Shown here: one piece after another, positions 32,737 to 62,838 of the stretch
Numbering within the stretch: the first letter of the stretch is position 1
How the letters are laid out: every line of letters starts with the position of its first letter
IMG/VR virus record: IMGVR_UViG_3300046526_000409
Span: 27,967-91,966 of that record
Source of the DNA: a virus
Lineage: Duplodnaviria > Caudoviricetes
DNA length: 64,000 nucleotides
Strand: one strand, 5' to 3'
Translations under genes and position numbers: made by a program
The notes under the pieces: model-generated
What the model was told of the DNA's origin: nothing
The model's input: the letters and a program-made list of their open reading frames with translations, nothing else
The model's database searches: none

Positions 32737-33933
32737 ATGCCGATCCTCGGCCTGTGCGCGGGATTCGGCGGCCTAGAAATCGCGGTTGAGGAACTCACTG
32801 GCGAGCGCGTCGCCTACCTGGCAGAGATCGACCGCTACGCCGCCCAGATCCTTGCGCACCACCACCCCGACATCACCAACCTCGGGGACATCACCTCCTT
32901 CGACTGGGCCGAACTCATCGGCCAGGTCGACATCATCTGCGCGGGCTTCCCGTGCCAGGACATCTCCAACGCAGGCCACAGGAAGGGAATCGATGGCGAG
33001 AAGTCGGGCGTCTGGCGAAACGTCGCCGAAGCCGTTCGCGTACTTCGACCGCGGCTCGTCTTCCTGGAGAACGTCTCCGCCATCGCCCGACGAGGACTCG
33101 ACCGAGTACTCGGGGACCTGGCCGCGATCGGGTACGACGCGCGATGGATGTGCTTTCGAGCTTCCGAAGTTGGAGCAGCCCACCATCGCGACAGATGGTT
33201 CTGCGTTGCCTTCCCTTCTGCCGACGCCCCTGGCGCGGGACTGGAAGGCCGGGACGGGCAACCGTCACGGGAAGATGAGCCGGCCTCTAAGCGAGGTCGC
33301 CTTGCTCTTGCCGGCGGAACCCCTTCCGATGGCGATGCTTCCGACACCGAGGGCCAGCGACGGCCCGAAGGGCGCACCGAACCAGCGGGACAGCAGCGGA
33401 CGCTATACGCACTTGCCGGCGGCCGTGGTGCATCTCCTGCCGACCCCGATTGCCGGGGACAGCAAGAACACGGGCAACCTGAAGCAGGACGGGACGCCGT
33501 ACGGGAACCGCCCACGCCCCACGCTGACGGACGCTGTGCGCCATCTCCTGCCGACTCCCACAGCGTCCGACGGCAAGGGCGGCGCGGGACACGCCCCCGG
33601 CTCGACTGGGTCGATGAACCTCCGCACCCTCGTCACTCACCTGCCGAGTGGTGGGGGGAGTACGCGCCGGCCATCCACCGATGGGAAGCCATCACCGGAG
33701 TTCAGGCGCCGTACCCGACCGAAATTGGGCCCAGAGGCGGACGCCGCCTAACCGCGGTCTTCGCCGAGTGGCTGATGGGCATCCCCGGACGCGTCACCAG
33801 CGTCCCCGGCCTCAGCCGCTCCCAGCAACTCCACAAGATCGGCAACGGGGTCGTACCCCACCAGGCATGGGCTGCCTACCGCCTGATCCTCCTGGAGTTG
33901 TTGCTCGCAGAACGAATCCAACTCGCAGCTTGA
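32737..33933 (+). CDS. C5-cytosine DNA methyltransferase
   Basis: GLCAGFGG (I), GFPCQD (IV), ENV (VI), HHRDRWF (VIII), AEWLMG (IX), KIGNGV (X). Confidence 0.92.
   Translation: MPILGLCAGFGGLEIAVEELTGERVAYLAEIDRYAAQILAHHHPDITNLGDITSFDWAELIGQVDIICAGFPCQDISNAGHRKGIDGEKSGVWRNVAEAVRVLRPRLVFLENVSAIARRGLDRVLGDLAAIGYDARWMCFRASEVGAAHHRDRWFCVAFPSADAPGAGLEGRDGQPSREDEPASKRGRLALAGGTPSDGDASDTEGQRRPEGRTEPAGQQRTLYALAGGRGASPADPDCRGQQEHGQPEAGRDAVREPPTPHADGRCAPSPADSHSVRRQGRRGTRPRLDWVDEPPHPRHSPAEWWGEYAPAIHRWEAITGVQAPYPTEIGPRGGRRLTAVFAEWLMGIPGRVTSVPGLSRSQQLHKIGNGVVPHQAWAAYRLILLELLLAERIQLAA
32993..33751 (+). CDS. Nested alternative-frame protein (methyltransferase beta-like) with LPTP repeats
   Basis: ATG 32993 after AGGAAGG; TWPRSG..RDG..FELP; four (L/M)LPTP repeats. 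Confidence 0.6.
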   Translation: MARSRASGETSPKPFAYFDRGSSSWRTSPPSPDEDSTEYSGTWPRSGTTRDGCAFELPKLEQPTIATDGSALPSLLPTPLARDWKAGTGNRHGKMSRPLSEVALLLPAEPLPMAMLPTPRASDGPKGAPNQRDSSGRYTHLPAAVVHLLPTPIAGDSKNTGNLKQDGTPYGNRPRPTLTDAVRHLLPTPTASDGKGGAGHAPGSTGSMNLRTLVTHLPSGGGSTRRPSTDGKPSPEFRRRTRPKLGPEADAA

Positions 33934-45596: not shown

Positions 45597-46262
45597 TTGA
45601 CCGACGTCAACAACTTCCGACCGTGGCCGAAGATCCCGCGATTCAACCGCGAGTTCGTCATCACGGAGAAGCTCAACGGCACCAACAGCCAGGTCGCCGT
45701 CAAGCGCATGGCCGAGGACGAGGACCCCGCCGGCTACCTCAACTCTCACGGCTTCAACGTCGTCTCCAAGGACGACGGTCTGTACGTCCTGCGCGCCGGC
45801 AGCCGCAAGCGGTGGATCGCCCCCAACGGACAGAAGTTGGACGGCACCGTCCCGATGGACAACTTCGGCTTCGCCGCCTGGGTGGCCGAGAACGCCAACG
45901 CCCTGGCCAACCTCGGCGAGGGCACGCACTTCGGCGAGTGGTACGGCCGCGGCATCCAGCACGGCTACGGCATGACCGGCCGCAAGTGGTCGCTGTTCAA
46001 CACCACCCGCTGGGGCACCACGGGACAGGGACTCCCCGACGGATCGCCGGCTGAACTGACCGTCGTCCCCGAACTCGCCCGAGTCCGCGGCCACCTCCTC
46101 AACGAAGCCATCCGTGACTCCCTGCGTCTGCTGCGCACCCTCGGCTCCGTCGCCGAACCGGGGGCCACGGCGGAAGGGATCGTCATCTACAGCGTCGAGG
46201 CCAACCAGTGCTACAAGGCCCTGCTGGAGAACGACGACCTTCCCAAGGGACTCGTCGTATGA
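45597..46262 (+). CDS. RNA ligase (Rnl2-like)
   Basis: WPKIPR, ITEKLNGTN, GSR, FGEWYG, EGIVI, K motifs. Confidence 0.85.
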   Translation: MTDVNNFRPWPKIPRFNREFVITEKLNGTNSQVAVKRMAEDEDPAGYLNSHGFNVVSKDDGLYVLRAGSRKRWIAPNGQKLDGTVPMDNFGFAAWVAENANALANLGEGTHFGEWYGRGIQHGYGMTGRKWSLFNTTRWGTTGQGLPDGSPAELTVVPELARVRGHLLNEAIRDSLRLLRTLGSVAEPGATAEGIVIYSVEANQCYKALLENDDLPKGLVV

Positions 46263-46483
46263 CCGGCCCGGACGTCACCACCTACGCCCCGTTCCTCTAC
46301 CTGTCCACCGTCGTCGCCGCCGCCTGGGTCCTGCATCGGCCGGTCGCCCAGGCGATGGACCTCAACGACGACAGCGACACCCACGACTTCGTCATCGCCG
46401 GCATGTTCGTCGTCGTCGCAGGCGTGCTGTGGCCGATCGTCCTCCTGGCCTGGCTCCTTCGCCCCCGCCGGGATGCCCTGTGA
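46259..46483 (+). CDS. Small membrane protein
   Basis: Two TM segments; ATGA/GTGA overlaps. Confidence 0.55.
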   Translation: MTGPDVTTYAPFLYLSTVVAAAWVLHRPVAQAMDLNDDSDTHDFVIAGMFVVVAGVLWPIVLLAWLLRPRRDAL

Positions 46484-46842
46484 ACTCCTGGTACCACGCC
46501 CAGTCCGCAGCCAGGAAGTGGGGCGGAAGCCCGGACGACTACCTGGCCATCAGCGAGTTCATCGACTCCTCCAAACAGGTCGTCGGCGACGTCCGTCACC
46601 GCGCCCTCTACCACCACACCCTCGGGGTCTACCTCTGCGAGCGGATCTTCGGCAAGACGCTGAAAGTCGGCCGCAAGGACATCCCCGTCCGCCTCATCGC
46701 CGAGCGCCACATCATCGAGGACCTCGGCTGGCTCCCCAGCCCCAAGGACTACATCGACGGCATGCCCATCGCGCCGTGGATGTCCGGGGCGAAGCGCAAA
46801 GAAGTCCCTCTCTCTCACATTCTCGGAGCAGCCACCCCGTGA
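46480..46842 (+). CDS. DUF6915-like protein
   Basis: HAQSAARKWGG..DDY..I..FIDSSK...RHRALYHH...IAERHIIEDLG. Confidence 0.75.
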   Translation: MNSWYHAQSAARKWGGSPDDYLAISEFIDSSKQVVGDVRHRALYHHTLGVYLCERIFGKTLKVGRKDIPVRLIAERHIIEDLGWLPSPKDYIDGMPIAPWMSGAKRKEVPLSHILGAATP

Positions 46843-47381
46843 CCGACCTGACCAAGAACGACCAGAAGAACTTCCTCGGCATCCCGATTCGCGGCGAGGG
46901 CAAGTCCGGCTCCACCCGAGTCGCACAGATCAGCAAGGAGGAGTTCGCCGCCCTGGTCAAGCCCCTCCTCGACCACCCGGACGTCCACCTCTTCGGCTGG
47001 AAGCAGTACACGCCCTACTTCAGCGACGGCGACATCTGCGAGTTCTCCGCCAAGGGCTTCTACCTGGTCACCGAGGCCGATGTCGAGCAGTACGAGGACC
47101 TCAAGGAGAACGACCCGTACATCGTCGAGGAGGTCTTCGACCCCCACTCCGACCACCCCACCCTCGGCGGCCGGCCCTACCACTGGGACTCGGAGGAGCG
47201 CAGGGGCCACTTCGGCGACTACGAGGGCCCTGACAAGCCGCTGTACGAGGCCGCCATGGAGCTGTCCGGCGCCATCAACAAGGGCAGCTCCGACTCCGTC
47301 CTGCTCGGCCTGTTCGGTGACCACTGCGAGATCCAGGTCACGAAGTCGAAGATCGAGGTTGAGGAGTACTCGCATGACTGA
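46839..47381 (+). CDS. Hypothetical phage protein
   Basis: [16 protein letters not shown]...LFGDH. Confidence 0.65.
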
Positions 47382-47883
47382 GCGCTCCAACAAGGCACTC
47401 GGCTTCCTCGTCGGCGCCGCCTACGTGGCCACCATCCCCGCCGCCAACATCGCGCTCCACCGTTACGGCACCGTCCCGGTCGGCTTCGGCCACCAGGCGC
47501 CGGCCGCGGTATTCCTCGCCGGCCCCGCCCTGGTCCTGCGGGACGCGGTGCAGTGGCTGCTCGGCCGCCGGATAGCCATCGCCGCACTCATCGTCGGCAT
47601 CGTCCTGTCCTTCCTCGTCGCCGACCCGGCGGTCGCCCTGGCCAGCGCCGTGGCCTTCGGCGTCTCCGAAGCCGCCGATATGGCCGTCTTCAGCCGGCTG
47701 TCCCCGCGTTGGGTCCGCGCGGTCCTCGCCGGAGGAGTCGTGGGCATCCTGCTCGACTCCCTGTTGTTCCTGTCCATCGCCTTCGGGTCACTCGACTTCC
47801 TCGACGGACAGATCATCGGCAAGCTCTACGGAGTCGTCCTCGGCTCCCTCGTCGTGGCGCTGCGTCGCCGCGCCGCCAGGTGA
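47374..47883 (+). CDS. VUT-family (queuosine-precursor) transporter
   Basis: [47 protein letters not shown]. Confidence 0.85.
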
Positions 47884-48656
47884 CGTTCTTCCTCGGAACG
47901 CACATCCCTTCCTGGCTCGGCAACGCCGACGTCCCGCTGTTCGTCTCGCACCGCCGTCTGATCGGCCGCAAGACCTACCCCAGAGCCATCAATACCTGGG
48001 CACTGGACAGCGGCGGATTCACCGAGATCTCCATGCACGGCCGGTGGACCATCACCTCCGCCGCATACATCGACGCCGTCCGCTGCTACCGCGACGAGAT
48101 CGGCAACCTCGCCTGGGCCAGCCCCCAGGACTGGATGTGCGAGCCGTGGATCACCCAAAAGACCGGGCTCAGCGTCACCGAGCACCAACACCGCACCGTA
48201 GGCAACTACCTCGACCTCAAGGCAGCAGCTCCTGACCTGCCGTTCGCCCCCGTCCTACAGGGCTGGGATCGCGCCGACTACCAGCACTGCGCCGAGATGT
48301 ACGAGAAGGCCGGCGTCGACCTGGCCGCCGAACCCATCGTCGGAATCGGGTCCGTATGCCGACGCCAGCACATGGACGCAGCCGTCGACATCATCACCGA
48401 CGCCACCGACCAAGGCATCAAAGTCCACGGCTTCGGCTTCAAGATCACAGGGCTAAGGCGAGTGGGCCACCTGCTCACCTCCTCGGACTCCATGTCCTGG
48501 AGCCTCCACGCACGCCACCGCCCCCCGCTCCTCGGCTGCACCCACAAGACGTGCGCCAACTGCCGCCGCTATGCCCTGCGTTGGCGTGAGAAGCCCCTGG
48601 CGGCGATCGAGGAAGCCCGCGCAAACAACCCCTACCAACTGGAGCAAGCAGCATGA
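47880..48656 (+). CDS. DpdA/TGT-like deazaguanine DNA transglycosylase
   Basis: [37 protein letters not shown]. Confidence 0.8.
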
Positions 48657-50841: not shown

Positions 50842-50910
50842 CGCGCATTAACACAATGCACAAATATGCCCTTAGCCTCCGAAAGGAGATCAATTCAAGG
50901 AGAAACGTAT

Positions 50911-51207
50911 ATGGACACCAAGAAGGATTCCAGCGCCGACGACGCCGTCTTTTTCGTCAAGAGTTCGACCAGCGCCACCGATCTGGGAGCCGCGGTCGCC
51001 CACGCCATCTACGCCCGCAAGAACGTGACCCTGCGCGCCATCGGTGCCGGAGCGATCAACCAGGCCGTGAAGAGCGTCCCCATCGCCCAGGGCTACGCCG
51101 GGTCCCGAGGCCACCGCCTCGCCATGCGGCCCGCGTTCTTCACCGCCACCGTCCCCGAGGGCGAAGTGTCCGGCCTTTCCTTCATCGTTTTCGACGAGGC
51201 CGCATAA
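50911..51207 (+). CDS. spoVS: SpoVS-family protein
   Basis: VKSSTS..DLGAAVA...LRAIGAGAINQAVK...PAF. Confidence 0.88.
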   Translation: MDTKKDSSADDAVFFVKSSTSATDLGAAVAHAIYARKNVTLRAIGAGAINQAVKSVPIAQGYAGSRGHRLAMRPAFFTATVPEGEVSGLSFIVFDEAA

Positions 51208-56771: not shown

Positions 56772-57746
56772 ATGGAGACGAACAACTTCTACAGTCGTCT
56801 CGGGAACAACGCTCAGCCCATCAAGGAAGCCGCCATCGGCGCCTCCGGCTATTTCTCAAGCCCGGCTGATCACCTTGACCCGAACCTTTTCAACGGCGAC
56901 CGCATCCATTCCGACGTCCGTAATTGGCTCCTCGGAACCCTCTACACCTTCTGGTCCACTCGCTACAACGCCCCAGGTCAGTGGAGCAACGTATGGCTCG
57001 CCGGCTCCGGCGCCAGCTACCAGTGGGCCGCCGACCGCGGCAATGGTGACCTCGACATCCTCATCGGCGTCGACTTCTCTTCCTTCGGCTGGTACAACCC
57101 CGACTACGCAGGAATGACCAGCCAGGAAATCGCCGACCTTTTCGACGAGGAACTCAAGGCGGAACTCTGGCCCGACACCGCCACCACCCAAATCGGGGAC
57201 CGGGTGTACGAGGTCACCTACTACGTCAGCCCCAACAGCCGCGACATCCGCAATATCAACCCCTACGCGGCCTACTCCCTCACCAAGGACGAGTGGACCG
57301 TCACGCCGCCCGAGCTGCCGGCAAACCCCCGCGACCTGTACCCGCAGGAGTTCCAGGACGCCGCCGCCCGAGACACCGCCGAGGCCCACCGCCTCGTCAA
57401 CACCTACAACGCCCTCGCCGACGAGATGAAGATCTCCCCGCAGGGCGGAGGCCACTGGGTCACCCTCGGCTCCCAGCTCACGACGGTCGTCGCCCAGGCC
57501 GCCCAGCTCTTCGACGACATCCACCTCGGCCGGCGCGCAGCATTCGCCCCCGGCGGCAGCGGGTACGGCGACTTCGCCAACTACCGCTGGCAGGCCGGCA
57601 AAGAGTCCGGGGCCGTCGAGATGCTCCGCTCCATCAAGGCCGTACAGGTCGCCACCCACGACCAGGTAGAGACCGACGCCTGGGGCCAGCCCATCAGCCC
57701 CGCCCAGTTCGCCCTCCGCAACGCAGCCCTGTGGCGGTCCCGGTGA
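56772..57746 (+). CDS. Pol-beta-superfamily nucleotidyltransferase
   Basis: LAGSG...GDLDILIG...EVTYY. Confidence 0.75.
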   Translation: METNNFYSRLGNNAQPIKEAAIGASGYFSSPADHLDPNLFNGDRIHSDVRNWLLGTLYTFWSTRYNAPGQWSNVWLAGSGASYQWAADRGNGDLDILIGVDFSSFGWYNPDYAGMTSQEIADLFDEELKAELWPDTATTQIGDRVYEVTYYVSPNSRDIRNINPYAAYSLTKDEWTVTPPELPANPRDLYPQEFQDAAARDTAEAHRLVNTYNALADEMKISPQGGGHWVTLGSQLTTVVAQAAQLFDDIHLGRRAAFAPGGSGYGDFANYRWQAGKESGAVEMLRSIKAVQVATHDQVETDAWGQPISPAQFALRNAALWRSR

Positions 57747-58228
57747 ACGTCGTCATAGCCATCGACGGTGTCCTCAAGCGTCCCGACAGTGACGCCGTCA
57801 TCCCCGCCGGCCAGCTTCTCTACCACGGTCTCGCCGAAACCCACGTCGTGCACCTGGCCGACGACGCCGACACCTTCAACTCCTCGAAGGCACTCGCGCA
57901 GAACTGGCTCAAGCGCAACGGGCTCACCAAGCACGTCAGGGTGATCAAGCCCTACGCCAGCGACCGCTACGGACTCCTCGGCGGCCTCCAGCAGCTCCGC
58001 CCGGACCTCCACGTCGACCTGGTCGTCGTTGCCGACCCCGTCCAGGCCAGCGATCTCCTCGCAGCCGGCTACACCACTGTGCTCTTCACCCACCCCCGCT
58101 ACACCCGCCCCCAGTGGAAGCCCGACTACCGCGGCGAGCCGAAAGCCTGGGACGACCTCGTCGCCGAGATCGAAGCCCAGGACCAGCACTACGCCCAGGA
58201 CGCCAGGCGCTCAGCCGGCCCCCTGTAG
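57743..58228 (+). CDS. Degenerate HAD-fold protein
   Basis: VVIAIDGVL (first Asp missing), WL..NG, VVADP. Confidence 0.55.
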   Translation: MNVVIAIDGVLKRPDSDAVIPAGQLLYHGLAETHVVHLADDADTFNSSKALAQNWLKRNGLTKHVRVIKPYASDRYGLLGGLQQLRPDLHVDLVVVADPVQASDLLAAGYTTVLFTHPRYTRPQWKPDYRGEPKAWDDLVAEIEAQDQHYAQDARRSAGPL

Positions 58229-58239
58229 GAGACACCCTC

Positions 58240-59718
58240 TTGAAGCTCTACCTGGCCGGGACCGAAATCCCGGCCTACCGGAGCCTGCTCGCCCAGGAGG
58301 GTCACACCACCGTGGCCCTCTCCTACTGGGGACTGCGCAGGCGCACCAAGTTCACCAAGCCCTACGACCTGACGGAGAAGTTCCGGGACGACGCGGAGAT
58401 CCTCATCGACTCCGGATGCCACTCCATCAACAGCAAGCCCAACAGCGACGTCAGTGACGCCGAGCTGCGCGACATCGCCGAGCACTACTACGACGTGTTC
58501 GTCGCACAGAACCTCCAGCGGCTGGCCTACTTCGTCGAGTTCGACGCCCACCAGCTCGGCCACGAGTGGATCCGCGAGCAGCGCCAGCGCTTCGACGCCG
58601 GCAGGGACAAGGCCATCGTCGTATGGAACCCGGAGACCGGCCGAGAAGGGCTGGAGCACCTCTGCGAGGACTGGCCCAACGTGGGCATCACCCAGGCCGG
58701 CGTTGACCGCCTCGACGTCTCACACCTGCTGCCCCACCTCGCCAAGACCACCGACACCAAGCTCTTCGGCCTCGGCATGACCAAGACGGCGGCCCTGGAG
58801 CACGGCCTCTGGTACGGCGCAGCCTCCACCTCCTGGATATCCCCGAGCCAGTTCGGCGACACCATCATCTGGGCCGGCAAGGAACTGCACCGCTACCCGC
58901 GGCGATACAAGGACATGGCCCGCGCCCGGCACAAGCACGCCATCGCCGACGCCGGCTTCGACGCCGAAGCGGTCATCGCCGACGACTCCACCGAGGTCCT
59001 CCGGCTGTCGGTATGGTCCTGGCGGCAGTTCACCGACCACATCAACGGCAGGGGAGTAACTGCCCCCGGAAATCCCCCTACCGAGGAAAAAGCGGATCCG
59101 ACCCCCGAAGCAGTTGATCGACTGCCCCAAACGGCGCGGCACGCAGGAGTAACTCCGGCCACCGCGAAGCACCGGGAGAAGATCCCCTTCCCCGGCCTCG
59201 CGCTGGTGCAGAACACGGCCGAGGACGGCACCGTCAGCCGGCCCATCCTGAAGACCGTCGACCCCGGCATCCGCGCCTGCGACCGCTGCTACCTCTCCAG
59301 CAGTTGCCCCGCATCCGATCCGGGCTCCACCTGCGCGTTCAGCCTTCCCGTCGAGATCCGCACCAAGGACCAGCGCGCCGATGTCGCCGCTGCCCTCTTG
59401 GAAATGCAGGCAGGCCGCGTCTTCAGCCTGCGGTTTGCCGAGGAACTGGAGGGCGGCATTACCAATCCAGTGCTTTCCGGAGAACTCGACCGCTTCAACA
59501 AGATGCTCAAGACCGTCGAGGACATGGAGGAGAACTCCTTCTCCGTGAAGATCACCGCGACCCAGAAGGGGGCAGCCGAGACCGGCCTCATCAGCCGGCT
59601 GTTCGGCCGCGACGAAGGCGAACGAGCCCGTTCCCTCCCCGAACCCGTCAGCGTCGAACGCGCCGCCATCGAGACGGGATTCGTTGACGCCGAGGTGATC
59701 GAGGACCTGGCCGCATGA
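58240..59718 (+). CDS. TGT/DpdA-like TIM-barrel protein fused to a Cys-cluster/helical domain
   Basis: TTG after AGGAG; LYLAG, LSYW, IDSG, EFD, VVW, FGLGMT, STSW; CDRCYL..CP...CAF. Confidence 0.65.
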   Translation: MKLYLAGTEIPAYRSLLAQEGHTTVALSYWGLRRRTKFTKPYDLTEKFRDDAEILIDSGCHSINSKPNSDVSDAELRDIAEHYYDVFVAQNLQRLAYFVEFDAHQLGHEWIREQRQRFDAGRDKAIVVWNPETGREGLEHLCEDWPNVGITQAGVDRLDVSHLLPHLAKTTDTKLFGLGMTKTAALEHGLWYGAASTSWISPSQFGDTIIWAGKELHRYPRRYKDMARARHKHAIADAGFDAEAVIADDSTEVLRLSVWSWRQFTDHINGRGVTAPGNPPTEEKADPTPEAVDRLPQTARHAGVTPATAKHREKIPFPGLALVQNTAEDGTVSRPILKTVDPGIRACDRCYLSSSCPASDPGSTCAFSLPVEIRTKDQRADVAAALLEMQAGRVFSLRFAEELEGGITNPVLSGELDRFNKMLKTVEDMEENSFSVKITATQKGAAETGLISRLFGRDEGERARSLPEPVSVERAAIETGFVDAEVIEDLAA

Positions 59719-59867
59719 ACTACAGGAGTAACTGGACCGACATGGACGACATCAGCAACCAGGGTCGTACGACCGAGCGCCCCTGCCCGCACTGCAAGGG
59801 GCGCTGGCCCGAGATGGACGCGTGCGTCATCTGTGAAGGTGACGGCACCGTGGAAGTCGGCGGCTAG
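59715..59867 (+). CDS. Small Zn-finger protein
   Basis: CPHCKG...CVICEGDG; ATGA overlap. Confidence 0.5.
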   Translation: MNYRSNWTDMDDISNQGRTTERPCPHCKGRWPEMDACVICEGDGTVEVGG

Positions 59868-60677: not shown

Positions 60678-60786
60678 CTCCCAGTCAAAAACACATACAC
60701 GTCGGTAAGATCCCCAGAAACAGCAGTGACCCCGGCAGCCTTGCGACGCGTACCGGGGTCACCTGCCAGTCCCCTGGAGAACTGAC

Positions 60787-62838
60787 GTGCCACAGACTCT
60801 CATATCCAGCATCGACGTCGTTGCCCGAGCCGGCAGCGGCGTCGATACCTTGCGTGCCGTCGACTACCTTCGCGTCTCCACCGAGGAGCAGAAAAAGGGC
60901 TACGGCATCAGCTACACCAGCAAGCGCACCAAGAACCACATCACCAAAAAGGGTTGGGCGCACGCCGGCACCTACGCCGACGAGGGCTTCAGCGGCAGCC
61001 TCGACCACACTGAGCGCCCCGACCTCAAGCGCCTCATGGGCGACGCCCAGCAAAAGCCGCGCCCCTTCGACGTCGTCGTCGTTCCTGAGGAGCGCGCCAT
61101 CGGCCGGCGCGACCGCGCCTTCTGGCCTTGGGTGTGGAAACTCGAAGACCTCGGCATCTTCGTCGCCATCGTCCGCGGTGACTACGACAACACCACCGAG
61201 GCCGGCCGCTCCCGCATGCGCAAGGAAGCCGACCGAGCTGAAGATGAGCGCATCACCATCCGCGACCGCACCCAGGGTGGCCGGCAGGAGAAAGCCGAAC
61301 TCGGGGGCCACGACGGCGGACTGTCCCCCTACGGCTACCGCATCGAAGACCAGGGGAAGCGCGGAGAAAGCCGGCTGGTCCTCGACACCGGAGACGGCTA
61401 CGAGGGATACCCCACCCTTCGCCGTGCGTACAGCTTGATCGTCCAGGAGGGGAAGACATCCTCCGAGGTAGAGGACCTCTTCAACGCTGAGCGCGTTCCC
61501 GGACCATCCCTGGACCACTGGCCTCGCGGTTCCCTGCGCCGCATCCTCCTTGGTCGTGCCGTCCAGGAGTCGAAGCGAGTCTTCCGGGACCCGGAAGGCC
61601 CCAAGACGAAAGTCGGGCCGGACGGCAGTCCCCTCTACGGAGACACGGTGGTCATCAACCTCGACCCCATCTTCACGGAGGCAGAGCTGACGCTCCTCAA
61701 CACGGCACTCGCCAGGACTTCACGCGCTCCGCGCACCTCGGAAGGCGTCACCCATCCCCTCAGCCGGCATGTCTACGGTGAGTGCGGCAACGTCTTCACC
61801 GGAGTGAGCTGGGACGGCGTGACGACCAAGAAGGAGCGCGCGTACCGCTGCACGGGCCGGCTCACCGGGCGCAAGGGCAGTGAGCGGGAGTGCAGGACGT
61901 GTATGCAGATCGACGCTCCGGCTCTGGAGAGCAGAGTCTGGGACGAGGTCTGCACCATGCTCGAAGACCCGGAGAGGCTCCGGAGCATGGCCGAAGACTG
62001 GGTCGAGATGGTGAAGAGCAACGGCGTCGACTACGCGGCCCGGATCGACGAACTCGGCGAGCAGATCGAGGAGAAGGAATTCGCCATCGACGCCACCACG
62101 GCTGCCACGGCGTCGAGGTCCAAGCGTCGGGGGCTCGACAGGCAGGCGACCCAGGAGGCCATCAAGCGCGCCACGCGAGAGCTGGAGGAGGAGCTGGCCA
62201 GTCTGGAAGACCTCCAGCGCGAGGCAATCGCCTGGCAGGCCGAGATGGACGACACGGCGGCACGTGCGCAGGACCTTCAGCGGCTCTCCGAGATCGCCCA
62301 GGCGCATCTGCACTCCATGGACGCTCGGCAGAGGGAGGACGTCATCGACCTGCTCAACCTCAAGGTCACGATCCTCGGCCCTGCGACGCGTAGGAAGACC
62401 CGCAAGGACGACCTGATCTCCGACTGGTTTCGCGAGCGCGAACGAGTGGTGCCCACACTGACCGATGCGGCGTGGGCCGTTGCTGAACGCGTCATCCACA
62501 AGCCGAAGGGGCGTCGCGCTAGCAATCCGCGCGCGCTCGTTGACGCCATCCTCACGAAGGCGCGTACTGGCTGTGCATGGAAGAGCCTGGAGTACGGCAA
62601 CGTCGCCAGTATCTTCAAGCGTTGGTACGGCAACGGCACGTGGGAGGAACTCATGGACGCTTTGGCGGACTTCCCTGGCACCCCCGCCGCGGACAGCGTG
62701 GTGCTTCCGCCCTTGCGGATTGAAGGGCGCGTCGACCCCCGCCTCCTCATTCACGAAGATATTCCTACTGATCAAGACGACCCGTTCAAGGCGTCAAGAT
62801 CAGGTGGAATATCTTTCCTATTGACTGTGGCTGCCTGA
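60787..62838 (+). CDS. Large serine recombinase (integrase) with C-terminal IS5-like HTH domain
   Basis: YLRVST, DEGFSG, RP.L..L, PYGYR, Zn ribbon, coiled coil; LTDAAW...AIL..ARTGCAW...F.RW...G.W. Confidence 0.92.
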   Translation: MPQTLISSIDVVARAGSGVDTLRAVDYLRVSTEEQKKGYGISYTSKRTKNHITKKGWAHAGTYADEGFSGSLDHTERPDLKRLMGDAQQKPRPFDVVVVPEERAIGRRDRAFWPWVWKLEDLGIFVAIVRGDYDNTTEAGRSRMRKEADRAEDERITIRDRTQGGRQEKAELGGHDGGLSPYGYRIEDQGKRGESRLVLDTGDGYEGYPTLRRAYSLIVQEGKTSSEVEDLFNAERVPGPSLDHWPRGSLRRILLGRAVQESKRVFRDPEGPKTKVGPDGSPLYGDTVVINLDPIFTEAELTLLNTALARTSRAPRTSEGVTHPLSRHVYGECGNVFTGVSWDGVTTKKERAYRCTGRLTGRKGSERECRTCMQIDAPALESRVWDEVCTMLEDPERLRSMAEDWVEMVKSNGVDYAARIDELGEQIEEKEFAIDATTAATASRSKRRGLDRQATQEAIKRATRELEEELASLEDLQREAIAWQAEMDDTAARAQDLQRLSEIAQAHLHSMDARQREDVIDLLNLKVTILGPATRRKTRKDDLISDWFRERERVVPTLTDAAWAVAERVIHKPKGRRASNPRALVDAILTKARTGCAWKSLEYGNVASIFKRWYGNGTWEELMDALADFPGTPAADSVVLPPLRIEGRVDPRLLIHEDIPTDQDDPFKASRSGGISFLLTVAA

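Follow-up and report, generated by a model that had tools for sequence, protein, structure and literature searches.

What use a temperate phage could make of a DNA guanine transglycosylase homologue, when it carries no gene for making the replacement base, is the question raised by a two-gene locus in a provirus record from IMG/VR. The window, meaning the whole stretch of 64,000 nucleotides that was analyzed, is the right-hand 64 kb of this 91,966-bp record (CheckV completeness 100%). The closest homologues of both genes are found in Streptomyces genomes, and in S. diastatochromogenes the locus is embedded in a contig of 7.7 Mb. Near-identical prophages are carried by S. diastatochromogenes ATCC 21481 and Streptomyces sp. 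NPDC057253. Among the other products of the window are a serine integrase, a CHAP endolysin, DNA polymerase A, a class II RNR, RecA, ThyX, a dNMP kinase and an RNA ligase; the element is a temperate phage of Streptomyces, with the pair in its nucleotide-metabolism region. The best reading of the pair, to which we give an even chance, is salvage-dependent guanine replacement. The features concerned are as follows.

46114-46842, + strand: ORF for a DUF6915 protein (E 1e-39), upstream of the VUT gene and in its overlapping gene chain
46473-47381, + strand: ORF with no family match, directly upstream of the VUT gene and in its overlapping gene chain
47361..47366, + strand: GAGGAG Shine-Dalgarno sequence, 7 nt 5' of the VUT ATG, read from the sequence
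47374..47883, + strand: short VUT/YhhQ-like permease (169 aa, ATG start, about six hydrophobic segments), the proposed importer of the replacement base
47880..47883, + strand: GTGA in which the VUT stop and the DpdA start overlap, read from the sequence; homologues start at the same aligned position
47880..48656, + strand: Orion-type DpdA, a TGT-fold DNA guanine transglycosylase homologue (258 aa, GTG start)

The first-pass annotation, made from the letters of the DNA, had placed a VUT transporter and a TGT-fold gene here on the + strand, joined by a GTGA overlap; the overlap is plainly visible, and Vut_1, PF23859 and PHROG matches bear out both genes. The overlap is consistent with translational coupling of the two. 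The ORF upstream of VUT ends at a stop at 47379-47381, running over the VUT start, so that VUT and DpdA belong to a chain of coupled ORFs.

The VUT product matches Pfam Vut_1 (PF02592, COG1738/DUF165) with 34.2 bits, above the gathering cut-off of 27.2, over the central profile positions 66-132 of 152 only, and PHROG 4899 (function unknown) with E 2e-33; a precomputed PF02592 match is present in most of its homologues. A family profile of 25 homologues (alignment A1), compared by hhalign, aligned with residues 22-164 of E. coli YhhQ (91% probability, E 9e-7) and with gp41 of Escherichia phage CAjan, a 159-aa 'putative preQ0 transporter' (99%, E 5e-18). The phage permease and E. coli YhhQ have a homologous core, but the former is shorter (169 against 221 aa), being without an insertion of ~27 residues and the C-terminal part of YhhQ. 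E. coli YhhQ, of the COG1738/VUT family, was reportedly identified by Zallot et al. in 2017 as an importer of preQ0 and preQ1. The YhhQ equivalog models score the phage protein below their cut-offs (TIGR00697, 18.3 against 50.95 bits; NF008406, 19.3 against 252).

Two independent contexts, CAjan and Kitasatospora, tie the short-VUT subfamily to preQ0 metabolism. CAjan gp41 belongs to the same subfamily as the window VUT, and CAjan DpdA, which is of a different sequence subfamily from the window DpdA, puts preQ0 into DNA; CAjan makes its own preQ0 (dpdA-folE-queD-yhhQ-queC-queE cluster, PMC7544227), whereas the window phage is without these biosynthesis genes. A Kitasatospora short VUT, 50% identical to that of the phage, is the last gene of a queC-queE-queD-folE2 operon, with dpdA and two dpdB genes next to it. 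Deletion of yhhQ in CAjan had no effect on modification (PMC7544227), which counts against salvage. This lack of a phenotype, together with scores under the YhhQ equivalog cut-offs, makes the substrate of the phage VUT a presumptive one: genomic association with preQ0 clusters is the evidence that suggests preQ0/preQ1 transport.

The Kitasatospora region (Kitasatospora sp. L096:3794-12151, on contig 22 of genome G053) is a dpd-type cluster with a divided layout: dpdB, dpdA and a second dpdB-like gene share one strand, and queC-queE(Cx14CxxC)-queD-folE2, then the short VUT, occupy the other.

The second gene of the pair matches Pfam PF23859 with E 9.4e-96 (320.6 bits, cut-off 27; residues 3-247 aligned to positions 5-257 of the 291 in the profile) and PHROG 1279 with E 2e-99, and a PF23859 search of the whole provirus record returned this one gene only. 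Its AlphaFold model (13-sequence alignment; mean pLDDT 91.8, pTM 0.88) is a TGT-type (beta/alpha)8 barrel, for which the top Foldseek match was the bacterial DpdA 7ui4 (E 2.5e-6), with over 100 TGT chains after it. The link to 7ui4 comes from fold comparison alone, phmmer and profile searches of the protein against PDB sequences having returned nothing, and the bacterial DpdA equivalog NF041059 gives 11.3 bits against a cut-off of 200. An hhalign link from a shallow alignment (A2) to bacterial DpdA was discarded at 1% probability, although the motifs line up.

Residues of S. Montevideo DpdA have been given roles in catalysis (D95 as general acid/base, D256 as nucleophile), in stacking on the base (F99, L236) and in binding it (D130, H181) (Gedara et al. 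2023, PMC10164549). When these residues were placed in the 7ui4 sequence via Kitasatospora DpdA and then by motif comparison, D95/F99/D130/H181/D256 corresponded to D43/F47/D84/Q127/D203 of the phage protein, all invariant in its family. D43-S-G-G-F47 matches D-C-G-A-F of the S. Montevideo enzyme, hhalign set SSD203S against the SFDS/SIDS motif of bacterial DpdA, and Q127 aligns to the Gln/His position of H181; the D84 equivalence lies outside the significant alignment and is one of order and spacing only. Both Asp motifs that the first-pass annotation had described as retained, DSGG (residues 43-46) and SDS (202-204), are found here and do not vary across the alignment of 13 relatives. The phage DpdA looks catalytically competent, guanine exchange on DNA being its putative activity, and it shares its fold and active-site Asp/Phe motifs with the DpdA of the bacterial Dpd system (S. 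Montevideo DpdA/DpdB, 7ui4). The two enzymes differ in size, the window DpdA having 258 aa against ~405 aa for S. Montevideo DpdA, and the window phage is without DpdB and dpdC-K.

Salvage-dependent guanine replacement would proceed as follows. VUT and DpdA would form a salvage module of two translationally coupled genes in a temperate Streptomyces phage. During infection the short permease would enter the host membrane and bring in from outside a free base of the 7-deazaguanine type, preQ0 or preQ1 being the most plausible. DpdA would swap guanines in double-stranded phage DNA for the imported base through double displacement of the TGT kind, D203 acting as the nucleophile and D43 as the general acid/base, and the base-modified DNA would resist restriction. 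Protection would then depend on community supply, as the first-pass annotation had also supposed.

Profile searches of the complete 91,966-bp record for QueC, PTPS/QueD, FolE, radical-SAM (QueE), QueF and DpdB gave no match at E<=1; the same profiles matched most control genomes. The absence of folE, queD, queE and queC that had been noted for the window therefore stands, and it extends to the rest of the record. Phage-encoded FolE/QueD/QueE/QueC, by which a phage 7-deazaguanine modification system is recognized, are accordingly missing across the 92 kb, and neither the dpdC-K restriction genes nor the DpdB ATPase is present in the record. For the host, two Streptomyces genomes with related prophages (89-91% identical DpdA and adjacent VUT) served as stand-ins for the true one. 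In these two genomes, QueC searches returned nothing, or ~22-bit matches inside 550-aa PP-loop proteins, TGT searches returned no match, and the sole Vut_1 match in each was the prophage gene itself. Being without QueC, TGT and a VUT of their own, the stand-ins indicate that the host would be unable to make preQ0, or to import it without the phage VUT. Host supply of preQ0 was accordingly judged unlikely.

The pairing of a short VUT with a DpdA-type gene is not peculiar to this prophage. A scan of IMG/VR returned at least 353 viral contigs with a VUT relative. Among the best 80 of these 353, searched with HMMs of three families, VUT directly adjoins DpdA or a DpdA-like gene in 75 loci, and in three of the five exceptions the contig is cut 40 nt upstream of VUT. 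A PF23859-type DpdA is the neighbor in 20 of the 80, mostly downstream and either overlapping or within 50 bp. At the remaining loci the neighbor comes from one of two families of proteins that are 200-250 aa long and have no Pfam match, family X (directly upstream of VUT) or family Y, which together are the commonest neighbors of the short VUT (about 55 of the best 80 of 353 viral loci). QueC was found in none of the 25 VUT-bearing viral records of >=90% completeness.

Families X and Y share the motifs DNG[AK]F, PDV and [SC]xDS; examples are L014:5345-6022 for family X (alignment A3) and L010:6763-7395 and L002:3512-4159 for family Y. By hhalign, family X aligned with family Y (94%), with Rosebush DpdA (56%) and with the validated CAjan DpdA (92%, E 5e-7), in the last case with DNGAFS on DSGAFS, a stretch that includes the catalytic DxGxF motif. 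Given the alignment to CAjan DpdA, X and Y look like unmodelled DpdA subfamilies; the DpdA-like call for family X derives mainly from that comparison. The model of family X (pLDDT 66) is a (beta/alpha) barrel, for which VIA-align placed Cap10, DpdA 7ui4 and ArcTGT in the top 8, where unrelated barrels scored equally (Z 9-11); family X gave no match to PDB sequences in phmmer or profile searches. Foldseek matches of this model were set aside as generic TIM barrels only, with E above 0.01, as were hhalign links of X or Y to PF23859 DpdA from shallow alignments (probability <1%). StevieRay gp54, for which the depositors chose the annotation 'DpdA-like', belongs to family Y, and Pam5 gp30 and RHph_N3_2 gp054 are members of family X; phiLM21 p025 is a PF23859 DpdA.

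Of these phages, the Sinorhizobium phage phiLM21 has the genotype of the window phage, with DpdA (YP_009221496, PF23859-type, E 2e-43) and a short VUT (YP_009221497) adjacent to each other. It differs in that the order is reversed, DpdA coming before VUT, and in that its host is an alphaproteobacterium. phiLM21 has been tabulated with DpdA and YhhQ only and no que genes (Hutinet et al. 2019, Supplementary Data 1, PMC6884629), and the VUT-DpdA pair described here is a further case of this recorded genotype. [quoted passage not shown] 2019, PMC6884629), the largest group of that 2019 survey, and the idea was repeated in the MED16 paper; no paper testing it was found in the literature. What goes beyond the papers found is that the short VUT nearly always has a DpdA-type gene as its partner (in the best 80 of 353), that no QueC accompanies it in the complete viral genomes sampled (0/25), and that its commonest partners are two Pfam-less DpdA-like families. 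The window DpdA, moreover, falls in a subfamily whose only tested member was unmodified, and there an importer would matter.

A different explanation is that the base comes from the host cell, with VUT being dispensable or serving an unrelated membrane role such as superinfection exclusion or export of released guanine. Wild-type modification in CAjan delta-yhhQ would fit this explanation (PMC7544227), as would the fact that some actinomycetes (Kitasatospora) make preQ0. We nevertheless consider it very unlikely, because Streptomyces genomes with a near-identical prophage are without QueC and TGT, none of the 25 complete VUT-bearing viral genomes has QueC, and VUT keeps so constantly to the side of a DpdA-type gene (75 of the best 80 of 353 loci).

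Evidence against salvage also comes from the relatives of the enzyme. The phage DpdA is 54% identical over 253 residues to that of Mycobacterium phage Orion, and it shares ~56% identity with about 400 further mycobacteriophage genes; the validated enzymes of Rosebush and CAjan gave no BLASTP match to it, a result that counts against salvage. Likewise, PF23859 matches Orion DpdA (468 bits; L101/L102) and not the validated DpdAs of CAjan (L099) or Rosebush (L100), so that the Pfam label 'DpdA' marks a subfamily without a demonstrated product. Orion is the only tested member of its DpdA subfamily, and its DNA contained no 7-deazaguanine, with dPreQ0, dADG, dG+, dPreQ1 and dQ at under 6 per 10^6 nt (PMC6884629). 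The salvage proposal of the first-pass annotation has accordingly come through in part: stand-in hosts without QueC, TGT or a VUT of their own, and the occurrence of the VUT subfamily both in preQ0 clusters and beside DpdA-type genes, speak for it, while the Orion result counts against it, leaving a subfamily in which no member has demonstrated activity. The negative had been expected by its authors, since neither Orion nor its host makes preQ0 (PMC6884629). In this respect, and in the Pfam family of its DpdA, Orion is like the window phage, neither Orion nor its host having que genes; it differs in having no VUT, the window phage adding an importer.

An adjacent VUT is absent from most Orion-type DpdA phages and from more distant DpdA relatives in bacterial genomes, and ~400 mycobacteriophages keep a DpdA of this type without VUT or que genes, which means that selection may act on something besides salvage. 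DpdA might thus have a role other than bulk DNA hypermodification, or be idle most of the time: it might modify host or phage tRNA, act at a few regulatory DNA sites, or be an accessory that stays idle without a base. Orion was unmodified under laboratory growth, and Salmonella phage 7-11, which has DpdA only, modifies just ~0.02% of its Gs (PMC6884629); both facts would agree with such a role, as would the many mycobacteriophages just mentioned. The catalytic residues of DpdA are invariant, however, and the tight and repeated coupling to a permease across at least three transglycosylase families is not readily accounted for unless permease and enzyme share a small-molecule substrate. On balance, we regard this explanation as unlikely.

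Import and exchange into DNA could also take place as in the salvage mechanism, but with a base that is none of the 7-deazaguanines for which assays have been made. A different purine analogue, or a base from the secondary metabolism of soil organisms, could then give rise to an undescribed DNA modification. The substrates of VUT proteins are said to differ, Yuan et al. having reportedly found in 2019 preQ0/preQ1 for E. coli and queuine for Chlamydia. A base of another kind would also accord with Orion-type DpdAs never having been linked to a known modification, with the distinctness in sequence of PF23859 DpdAs from validated DpdA types, and with a VUT that scores under the YhhQ equivalog thresholds. 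We think it quite unlikely all the same, because the same VUT subfamily occurs in two preQ0-synthesizing clusters (CAjan and the Kitasatospora dpd/que operon) and the base-contacting residues of DpdA/TGT appear to be conserved.

The orphan-DpdA puzzle is made testable by the VUT-DpdA pair: an Orion-subfamily DpdA together with an importer, in a host that appears unable to make or import the base, is a concrete and cheap test case. Possible cultured models with the same module are cluster P mycobacteriophages such as StevieRay, and phiLM21, Pam5, Aoka and ReqiPine5; Brusacoram, which like StevieRay grows on M. smegmatis, has it too. If the salvage reading is true, protection of phage DNA depends on externally supplied metabolites, and Orion-type DpdAs gain a function. 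A bolder proposal, which we hold to be rather improbable, is that pairs of a short VUT and a DpdA-type gene (at least 353 VUT contigs; at least three transglycosylase families, two of them Pfam-less) constitute a widespread, biosynthesis-free salvage route for DNA hypermodification, installing an environmental base, possibly one outside the known 7-deazaguanines, in hosts without a queuosine pathway. Were this so, phage restriction resistance would hinge on metabolites released by neighboring microbes.

A further DNA-modification gene lies elsewhere in the window.

32737-33933, + strand: C5-cytosine DNA methyltransferase (398-aa ORF; PF00145, E 5.3e-36)

Here PF00145 is matched in its N-terminal half only (positions 3-162 of the 324 in the profile), the C-terminal half being divergent. 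The first-pass annotation had set a 5mC methyltransferase alongside the pair; the gene does exist, but it is not adjacent, being in the replication module 14 kb upstream of the VUT-DpdA pair and outside the operon, so that 'alongside' applies only in the sense of a gene of the same genome. It is a second, independent DNA-modification gene of the prophage, and it provides context for VUT-DpdA as no part of the operon.

Compared by megablast with 50,697 phage records, the region gave no match. The ORFs at 56772-59867 of the window likewise gave none in Pfam. The serine integrase ORF (60730-62835, + strand; Resolvase and recombinase zinc ribbon) has a C-terminal DUF4096 match (IS4/IS5 transposase N-terminal domain) at residues 577-642, which could be a fusion or read-through of an adjoining element. 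Just 3' of a RuvC-like ORF and the dNMP kinase, a SpoVS homologue is encoded at 50866-51207 on the + strand (PF04232, E 7e-16).
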